Shown: in pieces, positions 7,601 through 58,487 of the stretch
Numbering within the stretch: position 1 is the first letter of the stretch
How the letters are laid out: every line of letters begins with the position of its first letter
From: Vicinamibacteria bacterium
GTDB lineage: Bacteria; Acidobacteriota; Vicinamibacteria; Marinacidobacterales; Marinacidobacteraceae
Length of the DNA: 64,000 nt
Assembly: GCA_963555995.3 (NCBI GenBank)
Contig: OY821641.1
Location: 1,408,001-1,472,000 of the forward strand
Reading direction: 5' to 3'
Made by a program: the position numbers and the translations under genes
Notes under the pieces: generated by a model
Database searches by the model: none
What the model saw: the letters and a program-made list of their open reading frames with translations, nothing else
What the model was told of the DNA's origin: nothing

Positions 7601-8719
7601 ATGAAGCGACCCGGAAGAATCGCCGCGGTGCTGACCGGCCTCGCCGCCGGGACGGCGGCGATCCTGGTCGCGGTCCCCGGTTGGTTCGGCGCTGCGAGCG
7701 CCCATGAACCGGAACTCTCCCGCTACGGCTACTGGCGCGACATCCGTCCTCTCCTGGAGCAACACTGCGCTTCCTGCCACTCGGGGACCGGCCCCGCACC
7801 GGTCAACCTGATGCGCTACCTCGACGCGCTGCCGTGGGCCAACTCCATCGCCCGCCAGGTACTCCAGCGCCGGATGCCCCCCTGGTTGCCCGACGACGGC
7901 ACCGGCGATTTCGCGCATGCCCGGACGCTCGACGATCGGGAGACGGACATGCTCGTGGACTGGGCGATCGGGCTGGCCCCCGAGGGACCGGCTCCGGAGG
8001 ATGAGCCGGAGATTCCGGGCGCGGGGGCGGATTTGCCACCGAGCCGGCTCACGTTGGCCGAGCCGGTCGTCATCGGCGCGATGGAGTCCGTGGCAGCCGT
8101 GTGCCAACCGCTGGTCCGGGGTGAGGGAGTGGGGACGGCGGCAGCCGGTTTCGCGCTGATTCCCGGCGAGGCGGTCTCTATCCTGCGCCGGGCCGTGCTG
8201 TACGCCGGCGACGACTGCGCGAGCGGAGCGCCGCTCTTCACCTGGGTGGTGGGGCAGGGACCGCGCCTGCGGCCGGAGGGTGTCTTCGACCGCCTGCCGG
8301 AGCACACGGGTCTCTTCCTCCATCTGTCCTACCGCAAGGGCTTCGACACCGAGGGCCTGGAGTTCGAGGATGCGCCCCAGGTGGTGGTCTTCCCGCCCCT
8401 TGCGGACCGGACACGCGTCGTCGAGATGCTGGCGGTCGAGCCGGGAACCACCCCGGTGGGCCCGGCGACCCTCCTCTCCGTCCTGCCGCCCGAAGGACTC
8501 GACCCTGGCCCGGACGGATTCGCGGTGGAGGCCGTGGGAGACGACGGGGCGGTGACGCCGCTGCTGCGCATCCGCCGCTTCGATGCCGACTGGGCCGAGA
8601 AGTTCGCCTTCCGGGAGCCGGTGCGGCTGGCCGACGGCGCCGCCATCCGGGTCTCCCATCCGGGAGCGATTCTGGATCTGGTTCGCAGGCCGCCCGCCGG
8701 ACCCGACGACGATCCGTAG
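7601..8719 (+). CDS. Exported c-type heme protein (CxxCH), resembling cytochrome c/copper monooxygenase-like proteins
   Basis: Signal peptide; IRPLLEQHCASCH; RRMPPW; DWA..F.F..PV.L..G C-terminal pattern. Confidence 0.65.
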   Translation: MKRPGRIAAVLTGLAAGTAAILVAVPGWFGAASAHEPELSRYGYWRDIRPLLEQHCASCHSGTGPAPVNLMRYLDALPWANSIARQVLQRRMPPWLPDDGTGDFAHARTLDDRETDMLVDWAIGLAPEGPAPEDEPEIPGAGADLPPSRLTLAEPVVIGAMESVAAVCQPLVRGEGVGTAAAGFALIPGEAVSILRRAVLYAGDDCASGAPLFTWVVGQGPRLRPEGVFDRLPEHTGLFLHLSYRKGFDTEGLEFEDAPQVVVFPPLADRTRVVEMLAVEPGTTPVGPATLLSVLPPEGLDPGPDGFAVEAVGDDGAVTPLLRIRRFDADWAEKFAFREPVRLADGAAIRVSHPGAILDLVRRPPAGPDDDP

Positions 8720-44994: not shown

Positions 44995-47631
44995 ATGTCA
45001 GACGCCTCCGTACCCTTGTCCCAGGTGGACCCGAATCGGGCTGTCGCCTGGGCCAAGGTCCGCGAGGAAGCCGACGGCGGAGTTCGGCGTCTCAGCCTCA
45101 CGGACCACTCGGTGGACGTGGCGGCAATGGCGGAGGCCCTGCTGCGTTCCCCAACGCTGGGAGCGCGACTCGGACGGCTCGCGGGCCGGCCGCTGACCGA
45201 GGTGGACATCGCCCGATTCAGTTTTTTCGCTGGGCTCCATGATGTCGGCAAGGCCGTCCATCCCTTCCAGCGGCGGCTGCGCGACGGGTCGCGGGCCTCC
45301 CACACGGCGCCGGTCTGGGTCCTGTTCGGCTCCGGCAGCTTTCCCTCGGAAACGAGCCAACGGGTCGCCGCCTCGCTAGGGCGAGAGCGCTGGCGTACGT
45401 GGTTCGCCGCGGCGGACGACCAGAAGGCTCTCTGGGATGTCGTGCTGGCGCACCACGGCAGCCTTCCGGCAGATCCCGCGCCCCCGAGACCGGCCGACTG
45501 GGACGCGGATGCGCTTACCGGCTACGCCCCCCTCGCCGCCGTCGCGGAGGTGGTCCAGACGCTTGAAGCCATGTTTCCCGAGGCATTCAGCGGAGCCGAA
45601 ACGCCGTTGCCCGCGTCTCCGCGCTTCCTCCACGCGCTGGCCGGACTCATCGTCCTCGCCGACTGGCTTGGTTCGGACGAACAGCGTTTTCGTTTTCCGG
45701 TGGATGACGCTCCGGAAGGAAGAGCCAGGATCGACTGGTCGCGCGGAACGGCGGCGAAGTCTGCCCGCGCGCGGTGGTTCGACCTGTCCTCGACGCGCGA
45801 GCAGGCCGACCGGCTGCGCCTCGATTTCGGGGCGCTGTTCCCGGAGTTGGCGGACCCCCGCCCGGCACAGCAAGCCGTCCTTGATGCTCCCGAACCGCGC
45901 ACGGGCCAAGTAGTCGTCCTCGAAGCGGAGACGGGGTCCGGGAAGACGGAAGCCGCGCTGATCCATTTCCTGCGCCTGTTTCGGCTTGCCGAGGTGGACG
46001 GGCTGTACTTTGCCCTCCCGACGCGCGCGGCCGCCGTCCAGATTCATCGTCGCATCTCGGAGACGGTGCGGCGCTGGTTCGGCGAGACCGCACCCCCGGT
46101 GACGCTCGCGGTTCCGGGTTATCTGCGAGTGGACGATCAGAAAGGGCGGGCGCTCCCGGATGGCTGGCGCGTCCTTTGGGACGACGAGCGCACGCGCGAG
46201 CGGGGATGGGCAGCGGAGAACGCGAAGCGCTATCTGTCCGGCGCGATCGTCGTGGGGACGATAGACCAGGCGCTGCTGGGAGGGCTCCGGATCCGACACG
46301 CGCAGCTTCGCTCGGGACCGATGTTGCGGCTACTGCTGGTTGTGGACGAGGTGCACGCCTCGGACGCCTACATGACGACCCTTCTGCGGAACCTCCTCGA
46401 CCAGCACACGGCCAGCGGCAGCCATGCCCTGTTGATGTCGGCCACCCTGGGTGCCTCGGCTCGGGAACGGCTGTTGCAGCCGGCCCTTGCCCGGGTTCCC
46501 ACCCCAGCGCTGGAAGAAGTCCAGAAGTCCGCGTATCCGTCCATGCAGCGGAGTGGCGAGCGCCTCCGTCCGCTCGCGGCTGACGGCCGGTCCAGGCGGA
46601 TTGCGGTCGAGCTCTCCGATCCTGCATCGGACGAAGACTCCCTCTTCGCCAGGCTCCGGGACGCCGCCGCGTCCGGTGCGGTGGTCCTCTTCATCCGCAA
46701 CCGCGTCAGGGACGCCCAGCAGGCGGTTCTTCGGCTGGAAGCAATGGGGACGGCCCTGTTCCGTTGCCGCAATGTAGCTGCGCCCCATCACGGGCGCTTC
46801 GCACCCGAAGATCGGACGCTTCTCGATGAGTCTCTCGAACGGGCGCTCGGAAAGGGAAGGGAGCGACGGGGGGTCGTGGCGGTAGCGACCCAGACCGCCG
46901 AACAGTCTCTCGACATCTGCGCCGATTGGCTGGTGACCGACATCGCGCCAGGCGATGTGCTCCTGCAGCGCATCGGACGCCTTCATCGCCACCCCGAGAA
47001 TCCGCGCCCCGCCGGGTACGCCGAACCACTGGTCAGCGTCCTTGCACCCTCGGAGCAGAGTCTCGAGAGTCTCCTGAGGCCAGACGGACGGCTTCGACGG
47101 ACGAAGCTGCCGCTCGGCCTCGGATGGGTGTACGACAACCTGGTAGCCGTGCTCGCGACCCGCCGATGGCTCGCCGAGCGCGGCGAGGTCCGCGTCCCCC
47201 GCGACAATCGAGATCTCGTCGAGCACGTGACTCACGACGAAGCACTCCGGGCCTTGACCGAGTCGCTGGGCGGCGCGTGGCCCGCATATCTGGACGCCGT
47301 GCGGATGGGCAGGGCAGTGGAAGGCGGGGCGGCGCTCCCGGTGATGATCCGCTGGGACGAACCACTGGTGGACAATCAGAAGATCACGGAGTTGGCGGCT
47401 CCGACGCGACTCGGGCTTCGGGACCGCCGGGTGATGCTTCCCGATGCCTGCGAAGGCCCTTTCGGATCACCCGTGCGGACACTGAACCTGCCGGAGTGGA
47501 TGATCGAGCCGGACGTGGGGGACGACGCCCGGCCCGAAAACGTGATCGCCTCCGCCGGGACGATCCGGTTCCGGTTCGGCGGGTCGTCGTTCGTCTATGA
47601 CCGCCTGGGGCTGAGAAAGGGCAATGCGTGA
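44995..47631 (+). CDS. cas3: CRISPR-associated helicase/nuclease Cas3
   Basis: WAK, LTDHSVD, LHDVGK (HD), LADWLGS, AETGSGKTE, DEVH, MSAT, HGRF, QRIGRLHRH. Confidence 0.97.
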   Translation: MSDASVPLSQVDPNRAVAWAKVREEADGGVRRLSLTDHSVDVAAMAEALLRSPTLGARLGRLAGRPLTEVDIARFSFFAGLHDVGKAVHPFQRRLRDGSRASHTAPVWVLFGSGSFPSETSQRVAASLGRERWRTWFAAADDQKALWDVVLAHHGSLPADPAPPRPADWDADALTGYAPLAAVAEVVQTLEAMFPEAFSGAETPLPASPRFLHALAGLIVLADWLGSDEQRFRFPVDDAPEGRARIDWSRGTAAKSARARWFDLSSTREQADRLRLDFGALFPELADPRPAQQAVLDAPEPRTGQVVVLEAETGSGKTEAALIHFLRLFRLAEVDGLYFALPTRAAAVQIHRRISETVRRWFGETAPPVTLAVPGYLRVDDQKGRALPDGWRVLWDDERTRERGWAAENAKRYLSGAIVVGTIDQALLGGLRIRHAQLRSGPMLRLLLVVDEVHASDAYMTTLLRNLLDQHTASGSHALLMSATLGASARERLLQPALARVPTPALEEVQKSAYPSMQRSGERLRPLAADGRSRRIAVELSDPASDEDSLFARLRDAAASGAVVLFIRNRVRDAQQAVLRLEAMGTALFRCRNVAAPHHGRFAPEDRTLLDESLERALGKGRERRGVVAVATQTAEQSLDICADWLVTDIAPGDVLLQRIGRLHRHPENPRPAGYAEPLVSVLAPSEQSLESLLRPDGRLRRTKLPLGLGWVYDNLVAVLATRRWLAERGEVRVPRDNRDLVEHVTHDEALRALTESLGGAWPAYLDAVRMGRAVEGGAALPVMIRWDEPLVDNQKITELAAPTRLGLRDRRVMLPDACEGPFGSPVRTLNLPEWMIEPDVGDDARPENVIASAGTIRFRFGGSSFVYDRLGLRKGNA

Positions 47632-47637
47632 GTCAGG

Positions 47638-47714
47638 CCGAAGACCCCGCGAATGCGGGGGAATTCTCCGCTCCAAGAAAGCAGAGGGTCCATCCCCGAA
47701 GGATCGGGGCTATG
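47638..47714 (-). ncRNA. Degenerate CRISPR mini-array (CreR/crlRNA-like): pseudo-repeat, 20-nt guide, pseudo-repeat
   Basis: Minus strand: CATAGCCCCGATCCTTCGGGGATGGACC-C-TCTGCTTTCTTGGAGCGGAG-AATTCCCCCGCATTCGCGGGGTCTTCGG; both units align with the array repeat. Confidence 0.8.
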
Positions 47715-47740
47715 GAAGGAACCATCCGAGGACACGGAAA

Positions 47741-47801
47741 TTCCATGTACCGTCACAGAGTTTATACACTCTAATAATGCAGAATTTGCACTCACCGACA
47801 A
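47741..47801. promoter_or_regulatory. AT-rich promoter region for cas8e (and probably the divergent mini-array), containing the guide target
   Basis: TTCCAT...TTTATACACTCTAATAATGCAGAATTTG. Protospacer-like match at 47783->47764 with AAT at 47786->47784. Confidence 0.6.
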
Positions 47802-47871
47802 GAACGTCCACAATCCCGGATCTCGCCGCCGCGGCACTGGCCTCGGATCGCGTGCGAGAGGGGAGTTGAAC

Positions 47872-49416
47872 ATGAGGAACCTGTTGAGGGACGGGATCAT
47901 CCCCGTGCGCACCGGCCGCGCCGCGGACCGGGTCTCGTTGCCGGAGCTCTACGTCCGGTTGGCGGCGGATGAGGTGGACGCCTTTCCGGGACTTGCAGCC
48001 CACCAGTCGCCGGCGTGGTTCGAATTCCTGGCGCAGCTCGGAGCCCTCGCGGCACTCCACCGGGGCTCCGGCATCCCTCTCCACGACGCGGAAGCGTGGA
48101 GCCGGGTCCTCGCGGAACTCGCCGGCGACGCCGGTGCTTCGGCGTGGAACCTGGTCGGGGACGAGCCGGCGCAGCCGGCTTTCCTCCAGCCCCCGACGTT
48201 CCGGTTCGGCGAATACAGGCGGTTCGCAACAACCCCGGATGGCCTCGACCTTCTGGTGACCGCCAAGAACCACGACCGGAAACAGGCGCAGGCGGTCGGT
48301 GGAGACCCGCACCTCTGGCTCTACGCCCTCGTCAACCTGCAGACCCAACAGGGCTATTCGGGCCGAGGCCAGCCCGGCGTGGCCCGCATGAACGGAGGTT
48401 TCGCGAGCCGGGTGCTGGTGGACCGGCGCCCGAACGACCGTTGGGGAGCTCGGGTGGAACGCGCGATCCGGATGTTGGTCGCGCGGCGCGACGACGTGTT
48501 CCACAGCGTGGACGAAGCGGTGTACCGGGCTGAAGGCGGTTTGGCGCTCACCTGGCTCCGGGACTGGGACGAGGACCGGATGCTGACGCTTTCCGAACTG
48601 GATCCGTACTTCATCGAAGTGTGCCGCCGCGTGCGGCTCGTTCCGACCGACGAGGGCGCCGTCGAGGCCCGGGTTCGACCCGCGATGAAGCCCCGGACCG
48701 ACGCGAAGGCATTCCTCGGGAATCTCGGAGACCCGTGGGTCCCGCTGGATCTGCGCAAATCGCCGCCCACCGCCCTGACCGTGGGCGCGGGCGGCTTCGA
48801 CTATCGCCTGATGCAACGCATCCTGTTCCGTTCCGGCGAAACTCGGAAACCCTTGGCGTTCAAGGCCCTTCCGGGCGAATCCGGCAAAAACGCGGAAGTG
48901 CACTTCGCGGCCCTCGTCCGTGGGCAGGGGAAAACCGAGGGTTTCCACGAGCGCGTCATTCCCCTGCCGGCCGCGGTGGCGCTCCAGTTCGAGCGTGACG
49001 TGGACCAGGATGACGAAACGTCGCTCGAACAGCTCTCCGAACGCATGGTGGCCCACGCTGGAAGCGTGCGGAAGGTGCTGCGCCAGGCGGTGACGGTGTA
49101 CCTCCAGGGCCCGGAAAACCCGAACTTCAAGAAACCCGATGCCGCCTCCGTCGTCACCGGCTTCGACCGAAGGACCGATGAAGAGTTCTTCAAGCACCTG
49201 TTCGCGGCCCCCGAAGCGGGTTACACGCCATCCGAGCTGAAGTGGCAGCGATTCCTGAAGAACACCGCGGTCGAACTTGCCCGCGATGCCTGGAACCGGC
49301 TCTCCCCACCAAGCGCCCGTCGCGAAAAGGCGCAGTACGTCTCCGAAGTGGTGTTGTTCCGGGGCCTGCGCAAACAGCTACCGGACGCCTTCCCGAAAGC
49401 CGATCCCGCAAAGTGA
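47872..49416 (+). CDS. cas8e: Type I-E large subunit Cas8e (Cse1/CasA)
   Basis: MRNLLRDGII, HQSPAWFEFLAQL, AFLQPP, TAKNHD, ARMNGG, IEVCRRVRL, RGQGKTEG; RBS GGGGAG. Confidence 0.9.
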   Translation: MRNLLRDGIIPVRTGRAADRVSLPELYVRLAADEVDAFPGLAAHQSPAWFEFLAQLGALAALHRGSGIPLHDAEAWSRVLAELAGDAGASAWNLVGDEPAQPAFLQPPTFRFGEYRRFATTPDGLDLLVTAKNHDRKQAQAVGGDPHLWLYALVNLQTQQGYSGRGQPGVARMNGGFASRVLVDRRPNDRWGARVERAIRMLVARRDDVFHSVDEAVYRAEGGLALTWLRDWDEDRMLTLSELDPYFIEVCRRVRLVPTDEGAVEARVRPAMKPRTDAKAFLGNLGDPWVPLDLRKSPPTALTVGAGGFDYRLMQRILFRSGETRKPLAFKALPGESGKNAEVHFAALVRGQGKTEGFHERVIPLPAAVALQFERDVDQDDETSLEQLSERMVAHAGSVRKVLRQAVTVYLQGPENPNFKKPDAASVVTGFDRRTDEEFFKHLFAAPEAGYTPSELKWQRFLKNTAVELARDAWNRLSPPSARREKAQYVSEVVLFRGLRKQLPDAFPKADPAK

Positions 49417-49424
49417 GAAGAACC

Positions 49425-49970
49425 ATGGCTGAACAACAAGCAAACGGCAGCGAGCCGGTCCGTCTGGGCCAGTTGCTCGGCCGCCTGTCGCACCAACTCC
49501 ATGCCGGCCGCATCGGAGCCGGGTCGCTGGCGGAACTGCGCCGGATGACCCGCTCCAACCGGCCGCCTGCCTTCTGGAAGCTCTACCTCCAGATCGTGCC
49601 CGATGTCTGGCGGGAACCCGGGGGACGCCCGGACGTGCGCGTGGACGACGCCTGGGCCGCCATCATCCGGGGCATGGCCGAAATGGCGCCCGACGCACTG
49701 GCCTTCGGCCGGTCGTTCGGAGCCGAATTGTCCCGAGCCGGGTATTCCGAGAGCCGCTTCGTCCGCCTGCTGCGCGCAGACCACGCGGACCTCGCCCGCG
49801 AGTTTCGGGTCGCGGCCGGATGGCTCGGGGCGAAGGGAGCGAAGGCGAACCTGACACCGGTGGCCGAACTGCTTCTGGGCCGCCCCTACGTCGGTCTCGA
49901 CGTCAGGCCGGACTACGCCGCCCGCACGCTTGCCCACGACTTCTTCCGCGCCGAGACGACGCGGACCTGA
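49425..49970 (+). CDS. cas11: Type I-E small subunit Cas11 (Cse2/CasB)
   Basis: LAELRRM, PAFWKL, YSESRFVRLL; position between cas8e and cas7. Confidence 0.85.
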   Translation: MAEQQANGSEPVRLGQLLGRLSHQLHAGRIGAGSLAELRRMTRSNRPPAFWKLYLQIVPDVWREPGGRPDVRVDDAWAAIIRGMAEMAPDALAFGRSFGAELSRAGYSESRFVRLLRADHADLAREFRVAAGWLGAKGAKANLTPVAELLLGRPYVGLDVRPDYAARTLAHDFFRAETTRT

Positions 49971-49998
49971 TCCCGTTCCACTCAAGGAGGAAACATCC

Positions 49999-51180
49999 AT
50001 GACACCTCGATTCCTGCAGATCCACACCCTTACCGGTTATGCGGCAACGCTGCTGAACCGCGATGACATCGGCAAGGCGAAGCGCCTGCCCTTCGGGGGC
50101 GCGGAGCGAATCCGGGTCTCCTCGCAGTGCCTAAAGCGCCACTGGCGGGAGGCGACCGGGGAATGGTCGCTCCGTGATCTCGGCAGCGGCAAGTCGCAGC
50201 GTTCCCGCCGACTCTTCAGCCAGGTGATCGCAGAGCGGCTGCGGAAGGAGGGGATGAAGGACGACGCCATCGTGACCGTCCTGACGCCGGTCCGATCCGC
50301 CGTACTCGGCGAGAGCATCAAGGCCCGGGAAACCCGCAAGGCGCGGAAGGCAGGCGACGAGCCCGCCAATCCGCTCGACGAGCTCCGGACCGAACAGGTG
50401 ATCGTCCTGGGAGAACCGGAGATCGGGTTCCTGACGCGACTCGCGCAGGACCTGCATCGCGACAGCGCCGACGAGACCGCGAAGGCCGTGGCGAGCTATT
50501 TCAAGGACAAGGAGACCCGGGGCAACCTCGCCGCCCTCCGGCAGGAGGTCGGGATGGGCATTGACGCCGCCCTCTTCGGACGGATGGTCACCTCCGACGT
50601 GATGGCCCGATCCGATGCGGCCGTCCACGTTTCCCACAGCTTCACGGTGCACCGGGAGAACGCGGAACCGGACTATTTCTCCGCGCTCGACGACCTCGTG
50701 ACGGAGGAAGGAGAACTCGGATCGGGGCACATCAACACCAGCGAGCTGACGAGCGGACTCTTCTACTCGTACGTGGTGGTGGATCTCCCGCATCTGACTT
50801 CCAACCTCTCCGGCGATGCCGAACTCGCCGCGAACGTGCTGCGCCGCCTGCTCCACCTGATCGCGACCGTTTCCCCGGGGGCCAAGCGGGGAGCCACCGC
50901 ACCGTACGCGTGCGCCGAGCTCATGGTCGCGGAGATCGGTTCCCGGCAGCCGCGAACCCTGGCGAACGCGTTCATGAAGCCGGTCCCGCAGGGAAAGGCG
51001 GATGTCAAGGCGGACGCCGCCCGGGCGCTGGATGGCTACCTGGAGCGCTACGACGCGATGTACGGCGCCCACGAAGAGCGGCGTTTCGCGACCATGATCG
51101 AACCCGGTCCCGCCCATTCCGGCGAACGGGTGAATCTGGCCGCGCTGGCGGACTGGGCGGCGGCCCGGGTCGCGGAGTAG
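49999..51180 (+). CDS. cas7: Type I-E Cas7 (Cse4/CasC)
   Basis: FLQIHTL, LLNRDD, RVSSQCLKRHWR, ALFGRM, DYFSALDDL; RBS AAGGAGG. Confidence 0.96.
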   Translation: MTPRFLQIHTLTGYAATLLNRDDIGKAKRLPFGGAERIRVSSQCLKRHWREATGEWSLRDLGSGKSQRSRRLFSQVIAERLRKEGMKDDAIVTVLTPVRSAVLGESIKARETRKARKAGDEPANPLDELRTEQVIVLGEPEIGFLTRLAQDLHRDSADETAKAVASYFKDKETRGNLAALRQEVGMGIDAALFGRMVTSDVMARSDAAVHVSHSFTVHRENAEPDYFSALDDLVTEEGELGSGHINTSELTSGLFYSYVVVDLPHLTSNLSGDAELAANVLRRLLHLIATVSPGAKRGATAPYACAELMVAEIGSRQPRTLANAFMKPVPQGKADVKADAARALDGYLERYDAMYGAHEERRFATMIEPGPAHSGERVNLAALADWAAARVAE

Positions 51181-51184
51181 CGGC

Positions 51185-51964
51185 GTGGACGTCCTGCTGC
51201 TCAGCCTGCAGGCGCCGCTGATGAGCTTCGGCGGCCCGCAGGTGGACCAGGTCGGGCCGACCGGGCGGTTCCCCACGGTCAGCCAGATGGCCGGGCTCTT
51301 CGCGAATGCCCTTGGATATACACACGCCGACCATCGGCGCTTGCAGGTCCTCCAGGACCGCATTGCGCTGGCCGCCGCACTGGTCCGCGAGGGAGAGGAA
51401 CGGGAGGACTACCAGACGGTGGACCTCGGACAGCCGCATTTGGCGAAACCCTCCTGGACGACGCACGGTCGGCGCGAACACCGGGCCGGCGGTCCCGACG
51501 CCAGACTTGGGACGCACATCCGCTTCCGCCGTTACCGCGCCGATGCGCGGGTGCTCGCGGCGGTTGCGCTCGATCCTCCCGAGCCCGGGCCGGGTGTGGA
51601 AGAGATCGCGGCGGCGCTCGACAATCCCTGCCGCCCGCTCTTTCTGGGGCGCAAGAACTGCCTTCCGGCCGATCGCCTGGTTTTCGGCCTCTGCTCCGGC
51701 GTCCCGAATCTGACCGACGCGATTTCCCGAGCGCGCCGGAACTTCCCTGATCGTTGGACCGCCGCGTTCGGAGCGCCGGCGATCACCGAGGTCACCGCCG
51801 AGTGGCCCATCACGGAGCAGGATGTCGCGGTGGGGAGCCGGTCGGAAACGCATCGCGTCGTGGACCGGCGAGACTGGCGCAACCAGCTTCACGGCGGCGA
51901 GCGGGTGGTGGGACGCGGCGCGCTGCCGCTGGACGAGGCCGAACCCTCAGGAGGACCGGCATGA
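51185..51964 (+). CDS. cas5: Type I-E Cas5 (CasD)
   Basis: LQAPLMSFG, FPTVSQMAGLFANALG, DYQTV, PLFLGRKNC. Confidence 0.95.
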   Translation: MDVLLLSLQAPLMSFGGPQVDQVGPTGRFPTVSQMAGLFANALGYTHADHRRLQVLQDRIALAAALVREGEEREDYQTVDLGQPHLAKPSWTTHGRREHRAGGPDARLGTHIRFRRYRADARVLAAVALDPPEPGPGVEEIAAALDNPCRPLFLGRKNCLPADRLVFGLCSGVPNLTDAISRARRNFPDRWTAAFGAPAITEVTAEWPITEQDVAVGSRSETHRVVDRRDWRNQLHGGERVVGRGALPLDEAEPSGGPA

Positions 51965-52827
51965 CCCAGGTGTATCTCGTTCAAACTTCGTTGCGTCTTC
52001 GGTCGTTCACGAAGTGGGCGCTGGAGAGGCGCTTTCTCAGCGTGCCTCCCGGCGACGGCCGCGGGCGTCCTCGGGAACCCGATCTCGGGTATGCGCTGCA
52101 TGCCGCACTCACCGGCCTGTTCGGAGAGCAGGCGCCGAGACCGTTCACTCTTCTCCCGGAGGGAGGCGAGCGTCATGGTTGGTGCCTCGGGGGGCGCGAC
52201 AGGGACGTCGTTCCGGTACTCGGCTACGCCAAGGTGGATCAGGAGCAACTCGCGGGCCTGGCAGGACTGGCCCGTGAGGATTTCCGGGAGATCTTCGATT
52301 GCGACGCGCTGCGGGTGAAACCCCTCCCGGCGACCTGGCCGGACGGGATGCGACTCGGATTCGAGTTGCGCGCGTGCCCGGTACGGCGACGGCTGGCAAA
52401 GCGTCCGTTCACCACGAACACGTCCGGTCCGGCCCACAGGCAGGTGCTGTACTCGCAGCGCGGCCGGGAAGTGGACGCCTACCAGTTGGCGACGGCCCGG
52501 GCCGCGGAGCGCGGAGATCCGGTCCCGCGGCGTGACGAGGTGTACGCGGCCTGGCTCGGCGAGCGGTTCGCGGGATCACCGGATCGCCCTCGGGCGTTTT
52601 CTCTCGTGTCCGGGTCACTGCGGGTGCAATCCTTTCGCTCGACCCGTCTGCTCCGGCGGCCACATGACGGTAACGGGCGCTCCGCGCGCTGGCTGACGCG
52701 GCCCGAGGTCTGGTTTTCGGGCCAGATCGAAGTCGCAGCCGGCGGCAGAGTGGCGGAGTCGCTCCTGACCGGTGTCGGCCGGCACAGCGGTTTCGGATTC
52801 GGGATGTTGCTCCTCCGCCCCGCCTGA
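51961..52827 (+). CDS. cas6e: Type I-E Cas6e (Cse3/CasE)
   Basis: DLGYALH, LGFELRACPV, Gly-rich GVGRHSGFGFGML. Confidence 0.93.
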   Translation: MTQVYLVQTSLRLRSFTKWALERRFLSVPPGDGRGRPREPDLGYALHAALTGLFGEQAPRPFTLLPEGGERHGWCLGGRDRDVVPVLGYAKVDQEQLAGLAGLAREDFREIFDCDALRVKPLPATWPDGMRLGFELRACPVRRRLAKRPFTTNTSGPAHRQVLYSQRGREVDAYQLATARAAERGDPVPRRDEVYAAWLGERFAGSPDRPRAFSLVSGSLRVQSFRSTRLLRRPHDGNGRSARWLTRPEVWFSGQIEVAAGGRVAESLLTGVGRHSGFGFGMLLLRPA

Positions 52828-52851
52828 CGGGGCGCCGGGATTCCGCGCGCG

Positions 52852-53736
52852 GTGGTGCTCGAAGGCCGGCTCGGGCTGGATACGGCCCGGATTCCCCATG
52901 CGGACCGGCACGGCCTGATGTGGCTGTCGCGAGGCAACCTCTGGGTGGAGGCCGGGACGTTGAGGTTCCGCGCGGCGAAAGGCCCGATCCTGGAGGCGGG
53001 CGACTACGCAATTCCGTTCCAGATGGTTTCGGTGCTGCTCCTCGGGCCGGGCAGCACCGTGAGTCACGATGCCTTGCGACTGTGCGCCCGCCACGGCACC
53101 GGAATCATCGCGGTGGGAGATGACGGCGTTCGCGCGTACACCGCTCCGCCCTTCGGCCCCGACGAGTCCGCGATCGCGCGGAAGCAGGTACGCCTCTGGT
53201 CCGACGAGGACAACCGGATCCGGACCGCCCGACGCATGTACGCCTGGCGCCTGGGAGAAGTGCTGCCGCACCGGGATCTGAACGCCCTGCGAGGCATCGA
53301 GGGCGCACGGATGCGGGCTCTCTACAAAACCGTGGCGATGCAGCACGGCATCCGGTGGGAAGGCCGCCGCTACAAACGCGATGTCCCGGACTGGGCGGAC
53401 CTGCCGAACCAGGCGATCAACCACGCCGCCACCGCCGTGGAGGCGGCAGCGACGATTGCGGTGGCGAGCCTCGGGGCGCTGCCACAGTTGGGCTTCATCC
53501 ACGAGGACTCCGGGATCGCGTTCGTTCTCGACGTCGCCGACCTGTATCGCGGCGAAGTGACTCTGCCGGTGGCCTTTGCAGCGGTGAAGGAATACGAGCG
53601 GAATCCGAAGATCGAACTGGAGCGGGTCGTGCGCAAGCGGGCGGGCAAGGAAATGCGCCGACGGAAACTCATCCCTCACATGATCGACAGGATCAAGGAG
53701 CTCTTCGATGGCGATGTGCGTGATCGTGACCCGTGA
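52852..53736 (+). CDS. cas1: Type I-E Cas1
   Basis: GRLGL..ARIPHADRHG, LLGPGSTVSHDA, LRGIEGAR, LGFIH, FVLDVADL. Confidence 0.97.
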   Translation: MVLEGRLGLDTARIPHADRHGLMWLSRGNLWVEAGTLRFRAAKGPILEAGDYAIPFQMVSVLLLGPGSTVSHDALRLCARHGTGIIAVGDDGVRAYTAPPFGPDESAIARKQVRLWSDEDNRIRTARRMYAWRLGEVLPHRDLNALRGIEGARMRALYKTVAMQHGIRWEGRRYKRDVPDWADLPNQAINHAATAVEAAATIAVASLGALPQLGFIHEDSGIAFVLDVADLYRGEVTLPVAFAAVKEYERNPKIELERVVRKRAGKEMRRRKLIPHMIDRIKELFDGDVRDRDP

Positions 53737-54067
53737 CGTGCCGGCGCGTTTCCGCGGGTTCTTGGCGTCCTGCATGTTGGAGATAGCTCCGGGGGTCTAT
53801 ACGCAGCCCGACATGTCGGCGGCGGTGCGCGAACGGGTCTGGAAGGTTCTGCGGGACTGGTGGATTCACTACACGCAGGGCTCCGTGGTGATGACCTGGG
53901 CCAGTCCGGCGGCGGATGAGCGCCAGCAGGTGCTGACCCTCGGGGAGCCCGCCAAGGAACTGATCGAATACGAAGGCATGTACGTGGTTCGGCGGGAGGA
54001 AAGCGAGCAGACCCCGGAATCTGGGCGAGAGTCAACTCGGTACGGTCCAAGAAGGCAGAACCGTTAG
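53708..54067 (+). CDS. cas2: Type I-E Cas2 (no DnaQ fusion)
   Basis: VIVTRDVPARFRGFLASCMLEIAPGVY, AVRERVW. Confidence 0.95.
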   Translation: MAMCVIVTRDVPARFRGFLASCMLEIAPGVYTQPDMSAAVRERVWKVLRDWWIHYTQGSVVMTWASPAADERQQVLTLGEPAKELIEYEGMYVVRREESEQTPESGRESTRYGPRRQNR

Positions 54068-54146: not shown

Positions 54147-57100
54147 GCTTCCCCCGCACACGCGGGGATGGACCTCAACCAGGTCCACGCCGACCACCGT
54201 CCGAAAGGCTTCCCCCGCACACGCGGGGATGGACCGCAGGTCGGCGGCTCGTTCGTCCAGGTTCGACCGCTTCCCCCGCACACGCGGGGATGGACCCTCC
54301 TCCGCCGAGCCCGACTCCCGGACGAGCTGGCTTCCCCCGCACACGCGGGGATGGACCCCTCGAGACCCGCATCTATCCGATCACGATCGAGCTTCCCCCG
54401 CACACGCGGGGATGGACCCGCGCCGACGGGCTCCGCCGCACGAGCCCCGCCGCTTCCCCCGCACACGCGGGGATGGACCGAGCGCCGTCGCCGCCCAGGT
54501 GGCCGCCGGACTGCTTCCCCCGCACACGCGGGGATGGACCGCAGGCCGGCCTCCTGGCGGAGCTGAACATCGAGCTTCCCCCGCACACGCGGGGATGGAC
54601 CCGTAACCCCGGCCCCCCTGACAATTCCCTTTAGGCTTCCCCCGCACACGCGGGGATGGACCCGAGTCAGTAGCGATGATGAAGCCGGCCGTACGGCTTC
54701 CCCCGCACACGCGGGGATGGACCCATGCTCCGCAGTGCCAAACAGAAACGACCGCGGCTTCCCCCGCACACGCGGGGATGGACCGCGTGAGACCAGCTCT
54801 GGCCGAATACCCGCGCTGCTTCCCCCGCACACGCGGGGATGGACCCGTCATCGAGAGGCGTCGAGAGCGGGATCCGGTGCTTCCCCCGCACACGCGGGGA
54901 TGGACCGATCGCCTCCCAGGCCTGCTGGGTGAGGATGAAGCTTCCCCCGCACACGCGGGGATGGACCCCACCAGGAGCTGTCCCGCCATGCGATGTTCCA
55001 GCTTCCCCCGCACACGCGGGGATGGACCTTATGGGCGCTCCCGGATTTTTGGACCGATCGTGCTTCCCCCGCACACGCGGGGATGGACCGCCTGGGCGGG
55101 GACGATCCTCCCGATTGACGACGCTTCCCCCGCACACGCGGGGATGGACCCTGAACCGGGTGCTCGACCTGCTGGACTCGAAGGCTTCCCCCGCACACGC
55201 GGGGATGGACCCTGGGCGAGCTCGCGCCAGAGCGCGCCCCCGGCGCTTCCCCCGCACACGCGGGGATGGACCGTTCCCGTTCCGGACGTAGATGTCCACG
55301 ATGAAGCTTCCCCCGCACACGCGGGGATGGACCCCACCGCGAGGCGCGCGCCCGGCGCGATGTAGAGCTTCCCCCGCACACGCGGGGATGGACCGTCGTT
55401 TCACACGGCGCTGTTGCAGGCCTCCTCGCTTCCCCCGCACACGCGGGGATGGACCCGCGACCTGGACGTTCGCCAGGACGGGCCGGCCGCTTCCCCCGCA
55501 CACGCGGGGATGGACCGTCCACGAGCTCCACCGCTCGACCGGCCTTCCTGCTTCCCCCGCACACGCGGGGATGGACCGCAGCAACACGGCCCGAAGTAAT
55601 ACCAGCCTGGGCTTCCCCCGCACACGCGGGGATGGACCCAGCGCCGCCAGCATCAGCCCCGTGTCGAGCGCGCTTCCCCCGCACACGCGGGGATGGACCG
55701 TCGACGGGCGATCAGTACCCCCCCGATGCCGAGCTTCCCCCGCACACGCGGGGATGGACCGCCCGCCGACCACCTGGCGCCGGCTCCGATACAGCTTCCC
55801 CCGCACACGCGGGGATGGACCTCGCGGAGGTTGATGCCCTGGGCGGGCTGGGAGGCTTCCCCCGCACACGCGGGGATGGACCCCATGTATTGGGCGGATC
55901 GGTCGGCGCATAGGCGCTTCCCCCGCACACGCGGGGATGGACCCTCGACCTCCCCGTAATCCGCGAGCGCATCATCGCTTCCCCCGCACACGCGGGGATG
56001 GACCCACGTCGATCTCATCCGCGCCATCCGTTGCCGGGCTTCCCCCGCACACGCGGGGATGGACCGCCCAAGATCAACCCCAGAATTAAGCAGGTTCTGC
56101 TTCCCCCGCACACGCGGGGATGGACCCTAGCCACCGGCTACCCACCTAACCCGGCGAGCGCTTCCCCCGCACACGCGGGGATGGACCTCAGCCTGATTCC
56201 GCGAGCATACGGGGTAGCTCGCTTCCCCCGCACACGCGGGGATGGACCCATCCGATACAGGTCGAGCGGCCGGTCCGCCGCGCTTCCCCCGCACACGCGG
56301 GGATGGACCGGTCTCGCGCCGCAGCCGCCGCCGCTCCTGGAGGCTTCCCCCGCACACGCGGGGATGGACCCTGGGCTCCAAGGTCAACGAGCTCTACCGG
56401 CGGGCTTCCCCCGCACACGCGGGGATGGACCGGCACCCGGCCATTGCGGTCGCCATCAGGATTTGCTTCCCCCGCACACGCGGGGATGGACCCGTGGCCT
56501 CGTCCAGGAACCGGAGCCCGCGATCGCTTCCCCCGCACACGCGGGGATGGACCCGCCTTGATCTCATCCCCCCATAGCACCCACGCGCTTCCCCCGCACA
56601 CGCGGGGATGGACCGCAGCGTGTCGTCGACCATGACGCCCGTTTTCGGCTTCCCCCGCACACGCGGGGATGGACCCCCCGCCAGCTCCTGGGCGGACGAA
56701 CTGTGGACGCTTCCCCCGCACACGCGGGGATGGACCCCCGTCGCGGCATTGGCTCCTGTTGGCAATCCTGCTTCCCCCGCACACGCGGGGATGGACCGGT
56801 TTCGTCCTCGTTGGCGTTGACCGAAGGGAGGCTTCCCCCGCACACGCGGGGATGGACCCCGGGCGCCCGGGCCGCCCACCGAATACTCGATGCTTCCCCC
56901 GCACACGCGGGGATGGACCTGAGGGTGGCGCCGGCGCCGGCGGCCTTGCGCAGCTTCCCCCGCACACGCGGGGATGGACCCTACCGGAACCTGGTCGCCG
57001 GCGCCGCGGAGGCGCTTCCCCCGCACACGCGGGGATGGATCCTCAGGGGGTGCGCCCAGTGATCGGGCAGCTCAGCTTCCCCCGCACACGCGGGGATGGA

Positions 57101-58199
57101 CCTCCGCCTTCATGCTCCAGGACGTGAGCGATAGCGCTTCCCCCGCACACGCGGGGATGGACCTGAGCCCCATGTTCACGACCTACGCCCTGGCCGGCTT
57201 CCCCCGCACACGCGGGGATGGACCTGAGCCCCATGTTCACGACCTACGCCCTGGCCGGCTTCCCCCGCACACGCGGGGATGGACCCCTCACTGCCGGCCA
57301 GATGTCGCTCCCGAATCCGCTTCCCCCGCACACGCGGGGATGGACCCGAAGCTGTGGGCGTGTTGTCGGTTCCGTACGAGCTTCCCCCGCACACGCGGGG
57401 ATGGACCCTTCGGGGCGACGATGGAATAGTTAGCCGCCGCGCTTCCCCCGCACACGCGGGGATGGACCCACCTCCGGGAGACCCGCAACGATGCGGCCAC
57501 CGCTTCCCCCGCACACGCGGGGATGGACCCCACCGGGGTAGCGTGCCGCCAGCTCGGGCGCGGCTTCCCCCGCACACGCGGGGATGGACCCAAGTTCTCA
57601 TGGATCGGATCGGCTACGCGGTGGCTTCCCCCGCACACGCGGGGATGGACCGCTGCCCGGGTCGTGATCCGGGTCACCGCCGAGGCTTCCCCCGCACACG
57701 CGGGGATGGACCCATCCTCGTCTGCTCATCGCAGGCGCTGGAACGGCTTCCCCCGCACACGCGGGGATGGACCGTACATGGCCGAAGCGCGGAAGGATCT
57801 CGGCGGGCTTCCCCCGCACACGCGGGGATGGACCGCAGACAGGACCGTAGCGGGAGCCGTCGACGTCGCTTCCCCCGCACACGCGGGGATGGACCGCTGG
57901 AACGGTGCGCCCTGGCGGACGAGTTCGCGCTTCCCCCGCACACGCGGGGATGGACCCGGATTACCGATCCGGACCAGTGGATATACGGAGCTTCCCCCGC
58001 ACACGCGGGGATGGACCCCCTCCGGGCAGGCGGATCTGTCCGCCGCCCTGGCTTCCCCCGCACAAGCGGGGATGGACCGAGCGCCTCCAGCCGCAGGGTG
58101 CGGCCTTCCAGGCTTCCCCCGCACACGCGGGGATGGACCCCGGATCGGGAGCGTCGTGGTCTGGCTCGGATCGCTTCCCCGCACACGCGGGGATGGACC
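54147..58199 (+). CRISPR. Type I-E CRISPR array, 67 repeats and 66 spacers
   Basis: 28-nt repeat GCTTCCCCCGCACACGCGGGGATGGACC with a 61-nt period (33-nt spacers). Variant repeats at 57014, 58051 and 58173 (one C deleted) lie at the leader-distal end. Confidence 0.99.
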
Positions 58200-58217
58200 C
58201 GATGCTCCGTCCTCGGG

Positions 58218-58487
58218 TGTCAATGGGCGCCGAAAATGTCCCACTTTTGGGCTTCGAAAATGTCCCACTTTTCTGGTGGGCTGGGGGTTGTGGAACGGGT
58301 CCGATGAGGGGAGTTCTGGCCGGGCGTCCGCCGCGGATCTCCGCTCACTCCGCTCCCGATGCTGACTCGCTCCGCGGCAACCCCGCTGAACCCCTCCCCC
58401 TGAACTCCCCCCAAAACTCCGTCTCCAACCCAAAAGGTGTCAAGTTTTCAGATCCCATTTCTGTCCACTTTTCTAATCCCATTGACA
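58218..58487. mobile_element. Non-autonomous IS21-family miniature element (MITE), 270 bp
   Basis: Termini TGTCAATGGG...CCCATTGACA; subterminal repeat CGAAAATGTCCCACTTTT x2 on the left and related repeats on the right; no transposase. Confidence 0.85.

Follow-up and report, generated by a model that had tools for sequence, protein, structure and literature searches.

The 240-nt gap between cas3 and cas8e in this Vicinamibacteria bacterium's type I-E CRISPR-Cas locus contains, on the minus strand, a degenerate mini-array that is most likely (with a probability of about 0.9) a functional CreR gene, the predicted RNA of which would guide Cascade to the promoter region of cas8e. A regulatory RNA of this kind, loaded into Cascade and directed to the region of the cas8e promoter, was proposed in an initial annotation of this DNA, and we retain the proposal because of the comparative evidence that has accumulated across related loci. 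The features supported both by the sequence itself and by comparison are the in-register hairpins, the intact handle, the seed-perfect match beside AAT, the correspondence between guide, target and PAM, and the guide lengths that change in steps of six. The locus is complete within the window (the whole stretch of 64,000 nt that was analysed) and lies on the plus strand, with every cas gene an open frame; the gap extends from the cas3 stop at 47631 to the cas8e ATG at 47872. The components of the locus and of the mini-array are:

44995 to 47631, plus strand: cas3, HD nuclease-helicase of 878 aa (TIGR01587 and TIGR01596, both above the cut-off)
47638 to 47665, minus strand: pseudo-repeat 2, sharing 17/28 positions with the array repeat; the hairpin (6 bp, 4-nt loop) is intact and the last 7 nt are decayed
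47666 to 47685, minus strand: guide of 20 nt (32 minus 12 nt, with two fewer Cas7 subunits predicted)
47686 to 47693, minus strand: predicted 8-nt 5' handle, consisting of the last 7 nt of pseudo-repeat 1 and the variable 29th base, in the register of the array
47687 to 47714, minus strand: pseudo-repeat 1, sharing 19/28 positions with the array repeat and in register with it, the last 12 nt being identical
47872 to 49416, plus strand: cas8e (cse1), TIGR02547 with E 1e-15, under the curated cut-off; heads the predicted regulated operon
49407 to 54067, plus strand: cas11 (cse2), cas7, cas5, cas6e, cas1 and cas2, assigned by NCBIfam models (cas6e, TIGR01907, under the cut-off, the rest above)
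54147 to 58199, plus strand: CRISPR array of 67 repeats with a period of 61

The initial annotation described the length of the gap, the register, identical end and compensated stem of pseudo-repeat 1, the handle base C, the 20-nt guide and the intact stem of pseudo-repeat 2; on comparison with the array repeat all of these are correct, as are the coordinates. In pseudo-repeat 1, the stem of 6 bp and the 4-nt loop are retained through a compensatory change from C-G to A-U, and the handle base is the C at 47686. The Cas6e cut site at the predicted 5' handle is presumed from the biology of this enzyme. The upstream repeat thus retains the 8-nt 5' handle and the downstream repeat the 3'-handle hairpin, which is the layout of CreR, whereas two degenerate repeats with a single 20-nt spacer do not amount to a canonical CRISPR array. 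The 12-nt repeat end is found at five genomic sites beyond the array, one of which is pseudo-repeat 1. A terminator-like segment at 47698->47682 was set aside because it competes with the stem of repeat 1 (probability 0.96). The element matches no Rfam family (a single chance match to CrfA has an E value of 0.42) and is therefore missed by standard annotation, as had been anticipated.

The matches to the guide, together with the PAM next to the first of them, are located as follows:

47764 to 47783, minus strand: target (protospacer-like site), matching the guide at 14/20 positions, or 16/22 with the extension
47784 to 47786, minus strand: putative PAM AAT, the distal base of which coincides with the opening base of the candidate -35 box
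54040 to 54059, minus strand: second guide match, 16/20 with 13 of the first 14 positions identical, flanked by GGT, within the final codons of cas2

The seed of the target is perfect (7/7), and the mismatches fall at positions 6, 9, 12, 16, 18 and 20; since pseudo-repeat 2 begins with AA (the array repeat begins with GC), the match extends through positions 21-22. The 14/20 match reported initially, with its perfect seed, AAT and mismatches that include positions 6, 12 and 18, is thus reproduced in full. Among 20,000 dinucleotide shuffles of positions 47715-47871 (157 nt), 13 yield at least 14/17 matches at non-flipped positions, three combine at least 14/17 with a perfect seed and so equal the target, the PAM being left uncounted, and 21 have a perfect seed along with AAN. 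In the genome, two non-self sites combine a perfect seed with at least 13/17 matches, and the AAN flank is present only at 47783->47764; conversely, four genomic sites have a perfect seed and AAN, among which the target scores 14/20 and the others 9, 11 and 12. In the array, the 29th base, following the 28-nt repeat, is C in 37 cases, G in 22, T in 8 and A in none. In type I-E systems, this variable base stems from the last base of the PAM, and its distribution is consistent with a PAM that has C, G or T as the final base. The Cascade of E. coli recognises both AAT and AAC, AAT less strongly, according to the available text of the respective report (10.1101/2021.10.18.464778). The second guide match, at 54059->54040, is the best ungapped one in the genome and is located approximately 90 nt before the array, but its flank is GGT, it is absent from G013, a genome from the same genus, and it is covered by no variant in the sequencing runs; the reversed control pattern likewise has one genomic match. 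Probably, this match is due to chance, and a function for it appears quite improbable.

Relatives of the Cas8e protein were collected from genome contigs (10 loci), from the best 80 of 143 metagenome contigs and from genome searches that identified them in 4/61, 9/401 and 4/28 genomes, the own genome included. Nine entries were discarded, being the own locus or else duplicate, superseded or truncated, and 100 loci were then mapped in addition to the window; 54 loci, with near-duplicates among them, have at least 90 nt of scannable sequence upstream of cas8e. A handle-like repeat is present upstream of cas8e in 21 of these 54 loci, the metagenome part being the best 80 of 143 contigs, and in 15 of the 21, the best intergenic guide match follows AAT or AAC even though the PAM does not contribute to the score. 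Four loci (L032, L070, L071 and L076) were dropped because the second repeat was not seen, and L056, for which that scan likewise showed none, was retained for its clear target, at the cost of a slight bias of the set. Of the resulting 18 loci, including the window, 16 have AAN in front of their best site, always AAT or AAC, compared to 1.3 expected from shuffled guides; the exceptions are L003, which has no target, and L103, with AGT. Across the 17 guide-target pairs, there are 14, 13 and 15 mismatches at positions 6, 12 and 18, respectively, and between 0 and 2 at each seed position, whereas positions 19-20, which played no part in the selection, have 5 and 8. The guide lengths are 20, 26 or 32 nt in 15 of the 18 loci; binding by Cas7 advances in steps of six bases, as stated in the available part of PMC5159557. 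In the six mini-arrays with 20-nt guides, 86% and 94% of the cells assigned to stems pair.

The guides are mostly unrelated in sequence, apart from three kin pairs (the window and L015, L003 and L005, L053 and L060). The co-variation of guide and target that had been suggested as a check on homologous loci is present, save for L003, without a target, and L015, with a short match. Among the 11 closest mapped loci with upstream DNA (Cas8e identity of 50-69%), six have a mini-array, and none was detectable in the other five (L006, L008, L009, L010 and L025). L015 belongs to the same genus as the window and has a guide identical at 18/20 positions; the ungapped match to its target ends after position 8-10. 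In the family-wide DNA search, G013 is the sole match among 27 genomes. The guides of L003 and L005 are 20 and 32 nt long and share the 5' part; the difference of 12 nt, corresponding to two Cas7 subunits, is exact. The orientation of the mini-array varies (L018, L058, L090; L026, L056, L064, L092, L103), some mini-arrays pointing the same way as the cas genes; L018, L058 and L090 have the target on the strand opposite to that of the mini-array.

Additional evidence comes from a 152-nt variant contig that was assembled from a single run at a depth of 3.1 and is weak when taken alone; it differs from the window by 20 substitutions and four indel events across positions 47712-47806 (95 nt). The search that yielded it covered four runs of one study, three of which may be the source of the window itself. 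In the target, this contig is changed only at guide positions 6, 9 and 12, two of the changes being towards a match, and all 14 paired target positions are unchanged (14/14; P=0.027). Its PAM is AAA, although A is absent from the 29th base of the array, which counts against the functional reading.

Two promoters can be predicted around the target:

47786 to 47814, plus strand: candidate cas8e promoter, with -35 TTGCAC (47786-47791), a spacing of 17 nt and -10 CACAAT (47809-47814)
47761 to 47790, minus strand: candidate mini-array promoter from the relaxed scan, TGCAAA-18-TATAAA, with 8/12 consensus positions and the target between the boxes

A strict promoter scan detected no promoters in the gap of the window or in L004, and the candidates in the window, which score 7-8/12 consensus positions, come from a relaxed scan; on the plus strand, these are candidates that end in CACAAT (47809-47814), with the -35 box at 47785-47791, and another one that ends in AATAAT inside the target. 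The words TACACT and TAATAAT, from which the initial annotation derived the cas8e promoter, indeed lie inside the target but are probably not the -10 box of cas8e: the variant contig has lost TAATAAT, and L015 does not retain it. The PAM-side promoter is preferred because, unlike TAATAAT, it is kept in both. In L015, TTGACA-17-AACAAT occupies the homologous place, and in the variant contig, the -35 box is improved and the -10 box unchanged. Thus, the cas8e promoter is probably the pair of boxes at 47786-47814, with the -35 box overlapping the PAM. In L001, the target overlies a TTGACA-17-TACACT promoter. For the mini-array, TGCAAA-18-TATAAA could be the driving promoter, which is a weak prediction; the variant contig keeps TATAAA unchanged, and in L015, the homologous word is TAGAAT. 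In 8 of the 11 minus-strand targets listed, the complement of the PAM continues into a plus-strand TTG word, the loci with TTG beyond the PAM including the window as well as L015, L058, L060, L093, L004 and L018. In many cases, the AA of the PAM may correspond to the TT of a -35 box; promoters would then, by their nature, carry a PAM for targeting.

It is highly unlikely that the element is a CreA-type antitoxin, that is, an RNA through which Cascade shuts down a small toxin RNA or peptide (CreT) expressed from the targeted promoter, thereby imposing addiction to the cas genes, with the repression of cas8e a secondary effect. Such a system exists in the type I-B locus of Haloarcula hispanica, where, according to the available text (10.1101/2023.03.10.532045), the degenerate CreA crRNA takes Cascade between divergent promoters and represses those of the toxin and of cas8 simultaneously, in the latter respect resembling what is predicted for the element described here. 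Among the relatives of the window, a strong ribosome-binding site is located between the target and cas8e in L005 and L007, together with a small plus-strand ORF (14 codons at ~7790-7835 and 43 codons at ~7870-8000, respectively); L006, which lacks a mini-array, has a 4-codon version of this ORF that contains ATA (~7860-7885, plus strand), and L003, the cas genes of which are near-identical to those of L005, has lost both the target and the ORF. This is reminiscent of a creTA-like toxin being gained and lost. However, the only plus-strand pair of a ribosome-binding site and a start codon in the gaps of the window and L015 is that of cas8e itself (GGAG/GAGG in the window), and the leader, 47790-47875, shows no unusual structure (z -0.4). 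CreA, as far as described, guards a toxin RNA and belongs to another subtype and another domain of life, whereas no toxin candidate (a ribosome-binding site with a mini-ORF, or a small protein) was found in the gap of the window, and the element is therefore assigned to CreR rather than to CreTA, although a toxin of another design is conceivable.

The guide itself has an unusual property. Together with the handle base, it folds into a hairpin of 8-9 bp that covers the seed and has an energy of -9.4 kcal/mol on the minus strand compared to -3.7 kcal/mol on the plus strand, the G-U pairs favouring the RNA strand. The hairpin has a z score of -2.4 against dinucleotide shuffles and -3.8 against mononucleotide shuffles, and only 72 of the 16,384 possible fillings of the seven free guide positions fold as stably. 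In L015, the corresponding z scores are -3.4 and -5.5, and the closing pair is compensated from C-G to U-A although the target has drifted. These two guides, which are mutual kin, are the only ones of 17 with an individually significant hairpin, with several of the other 15 leaning likewise; the mean hairpin z of 97 array spacers is 0.08. Accordingly, a seed-masking hairpin as a general rule is unsupported, given that 15/17 guides are individually non-significant. The hairpin may simply safeguard the folding of repeat 2, the stem of which has a probability of 0.94 with the real guide and 0.78 with shuffled guides. Alternatively, at -9.4 kcal/mol, it could hinder Cascade loading. A more elaborate version of the latter possibility, which appears rather unlikely, is a built-in lock: the bases mismatched with the target would fold the 3' half of the guide onto the seed, so that the RNA loads less readily than ordinary crRNAs, this handicap would fix the crRNA threshold for switching the operon on, and the bound complex would also shut the divergent promoter of the mini-array. 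No description of a seed-masking guide hairpin was found in the accessible portion of the literature on the CreR/crlRNA class.

The hairpin also bears on the possibility that the element is a relic, namely, a former regulatory mini-array that is decaying and whose expression or loading has ceased in this lineage. The strong masking of the seed, the six mismatches out of 20 positions, the weak promoter consensus and the patchy presence among relatives all could be signs of decay, and L003, where the mini-array is kept but the target is absent, indicates that such elements can outlast their function. Against this, neither the handle nor either stem is damaged, flipped positions account for three of the six mismatches, and it is precisely the paired positions that are preserved in the variant contig; furthermore, L015 retains the stems, the guide, the seed and an AAC PAM at 69% Cas8e identity. 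A relic is highly improbable as well. Least probable of all, and hardly tenable, is a role of the hairpins without DNA targeting, either as a decoy for Cas6e or Cascade (a Racr-like sponge) or as a stabiliser or terminator at the 3' end of the cas3 message: although the palindromic repeat stems form on either strand from 7 nt past the cas3 stop, and repeat-mimicking anti-CRISPR RNAs reportedly exist (PMC10651486), this explanation leaves the PAM-flanked targets with flip-out periodicity in 16/18 loci unaccounted for, the handle is intact only on the minus strand, on which the guide hairpin is also the more stable (-9.4 versus -3.7 kcal/mol), and a scan of the window found no plus-strand terminator.

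Under the preferred reading of the element as a CreR gene, antisense transcription would start from a minus-strand promoter near 47761-47790, and Cas6e would cut the transcript at 47693 and 47645, releasing a 49-nt RNA (47693->47645) with the 20-nt guide. This RNA would be incorporated into a shortened Cascade containing four Cas7 subunits instead of six, which would form an R-loop at 47764-47783, with Cas3 remaining unlicensed owing to the mismatches at positions 9, 16 and 20, the short guide and the sub-optimal PAM. RNA polymerase would then be sterically blocked at the -35 box, so that the operon from cas8e to cas2 is repressed with no cutting by Cas3. By analogy with the tested CreR systems, crRNAs from the array or anti-CRISPRs would pull Cascade off the site and so turn the operon on; conceivably, the bound complex could also cover the predicted promoter of the mini-array and close a self-limiting loop. 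The premise of the initial annotation that short guides allow binding without Cas3 cleavage holds in one system and fails in another: in the available texts, the shortened Cascade of S. thermophilus does not support cleavage in vitro (PMC6859484), whereas that of E. coli, with the spacer shortened by 12 nt, still mediates interference in vivo (PMC5159557). The latter result implies that a 20-nt guide alone is no guarantee of escape from Cas3; escape is probably aided by the mismatches at positions 9, 16 and 20 as well as by the comparatively weak PAM, AAT.

The mechanism is already published, and the conclusion that the element is a new example of the CreR/crlRNA class is well supported by the sequence comparison; the supplementary lists of the respective papers may include this clade. 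The class, rightly recognised in the initial annotation as known, was described in 2023 (10.1101/2023.03.10.532045; 10.1101/2023.03.03.530964, in the text available). A characterized counterpart with the same layout is the type I-E CreR of Salmonella enterica (Liu et al. 2023; 10.1101/2023.03.10.532045), which, according to the available description, represses the casA promoter approximately 8.6-fold, as shown in E. coli, and responds to the crRNA load and to AcrIE8. Both elements are degenerate two-repeat mini-CRISPRs in which the 5' handle comes from repeat 1 and the 3' handle from repeat 2; in both, the spacer can pair in part with a site upstream of cas8e/casA that is flanked by a PAM (a putative one in the present case), and no toxin gene is evident. 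In that description, the Salmonella CreR has 15 consecutive matches and an AAG PAM ~140 bp upstream of casA, whereas the element described here, as predicted from the sequence, has a self-paired 20-nt guide, interrupted pairing (14/20, 16/22) and an AAT PAM that overlaps the predicted -35 box ~90 bp upstream.

Mini-arrays encoding cr-like RNAs have been detected in ~19% of bacterial type I-E loci (Shmakov et al.; 10.1101/2023.03.03.530964 / PMC10120712) and, as far as the available text goes, share with the element the location near cas3 with transcription opposite to it, the better conservation of the upstream repeat, the target in the cas8 promoter region, the PAM (putative in the element described here) and the tolerance of sixth-position mismatches. 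The worked type I-E example in that text comes from E. coli (AAG, H-NS site) and the experiment was performed on type I-F1; a self-pairing guide is not among the features that it describes. Viral Cracrs (10.1101/2024.10.29.618823, in the part available) are also crRNA-like RNAs with short spacers (21-24 nt in type I-E) by which Cascade is brought to the promoter of casA, but they reside on phages and plasmids and act against the host, whereas the element lies inside the host cas locus. The mobile location that characterizes Racrs and Cracrs does not apply to a site between cas3 and cas8e on a 3.8-Mb contig, and viral contigs contain no exact match to the handle and guide start. The comparative evidence thus extends RNA-guided self-repression of Cascade to a divergent type I-E clade of high G+C content with an apparent preference for AAT/AAC PAMs. 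This clade is a natural series, with guides of 20, 26 and 32 nt and loci that lack the target, the mini-array or the associated small ORF, and is suitable for asking how guide length and structure tune the feedback. With the mechanism published, the advance is incremental, except if the hairpin that masks the seed proves to have a function.

The genome, of 3.8 Mb and 70% G+C, contains only one array as judged by a repeat-hairpin scan. When the 64 distinct spacers of the window were compared with the genome, the best non-array matches were 21-25/32, with a single match of 28/32 that lacks an AA flank. Thus, no array spacer matches its own genome with an AA flank, and there is no sign of self-priming. 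The matches listed for the spacers of 11 arrays against the genome of the window and the related loci are short chance matches and include no protospacer. In the array, the same spacer is present in two adjacent units (57136-57257). Just past the last repeat, at ~58215-58260, there is a stretch starting with TGT, along with a short direct repeat, which we take to resemble the end of an IS21-type insertion sequence. The Cas2 protein (53708-54067; 119 aa) has a C-terminal tail of ~28 residues past the family model (match 3-91), and the tail of Cas2 in G013 is unrelated to it in sequence. Finally, contigs from other organisms in the same runs contain pieces of cas1/cas2 that are 80-90% similar to positions 53394-53853, which indicates that related type I-E systems co-occur in the same samples.
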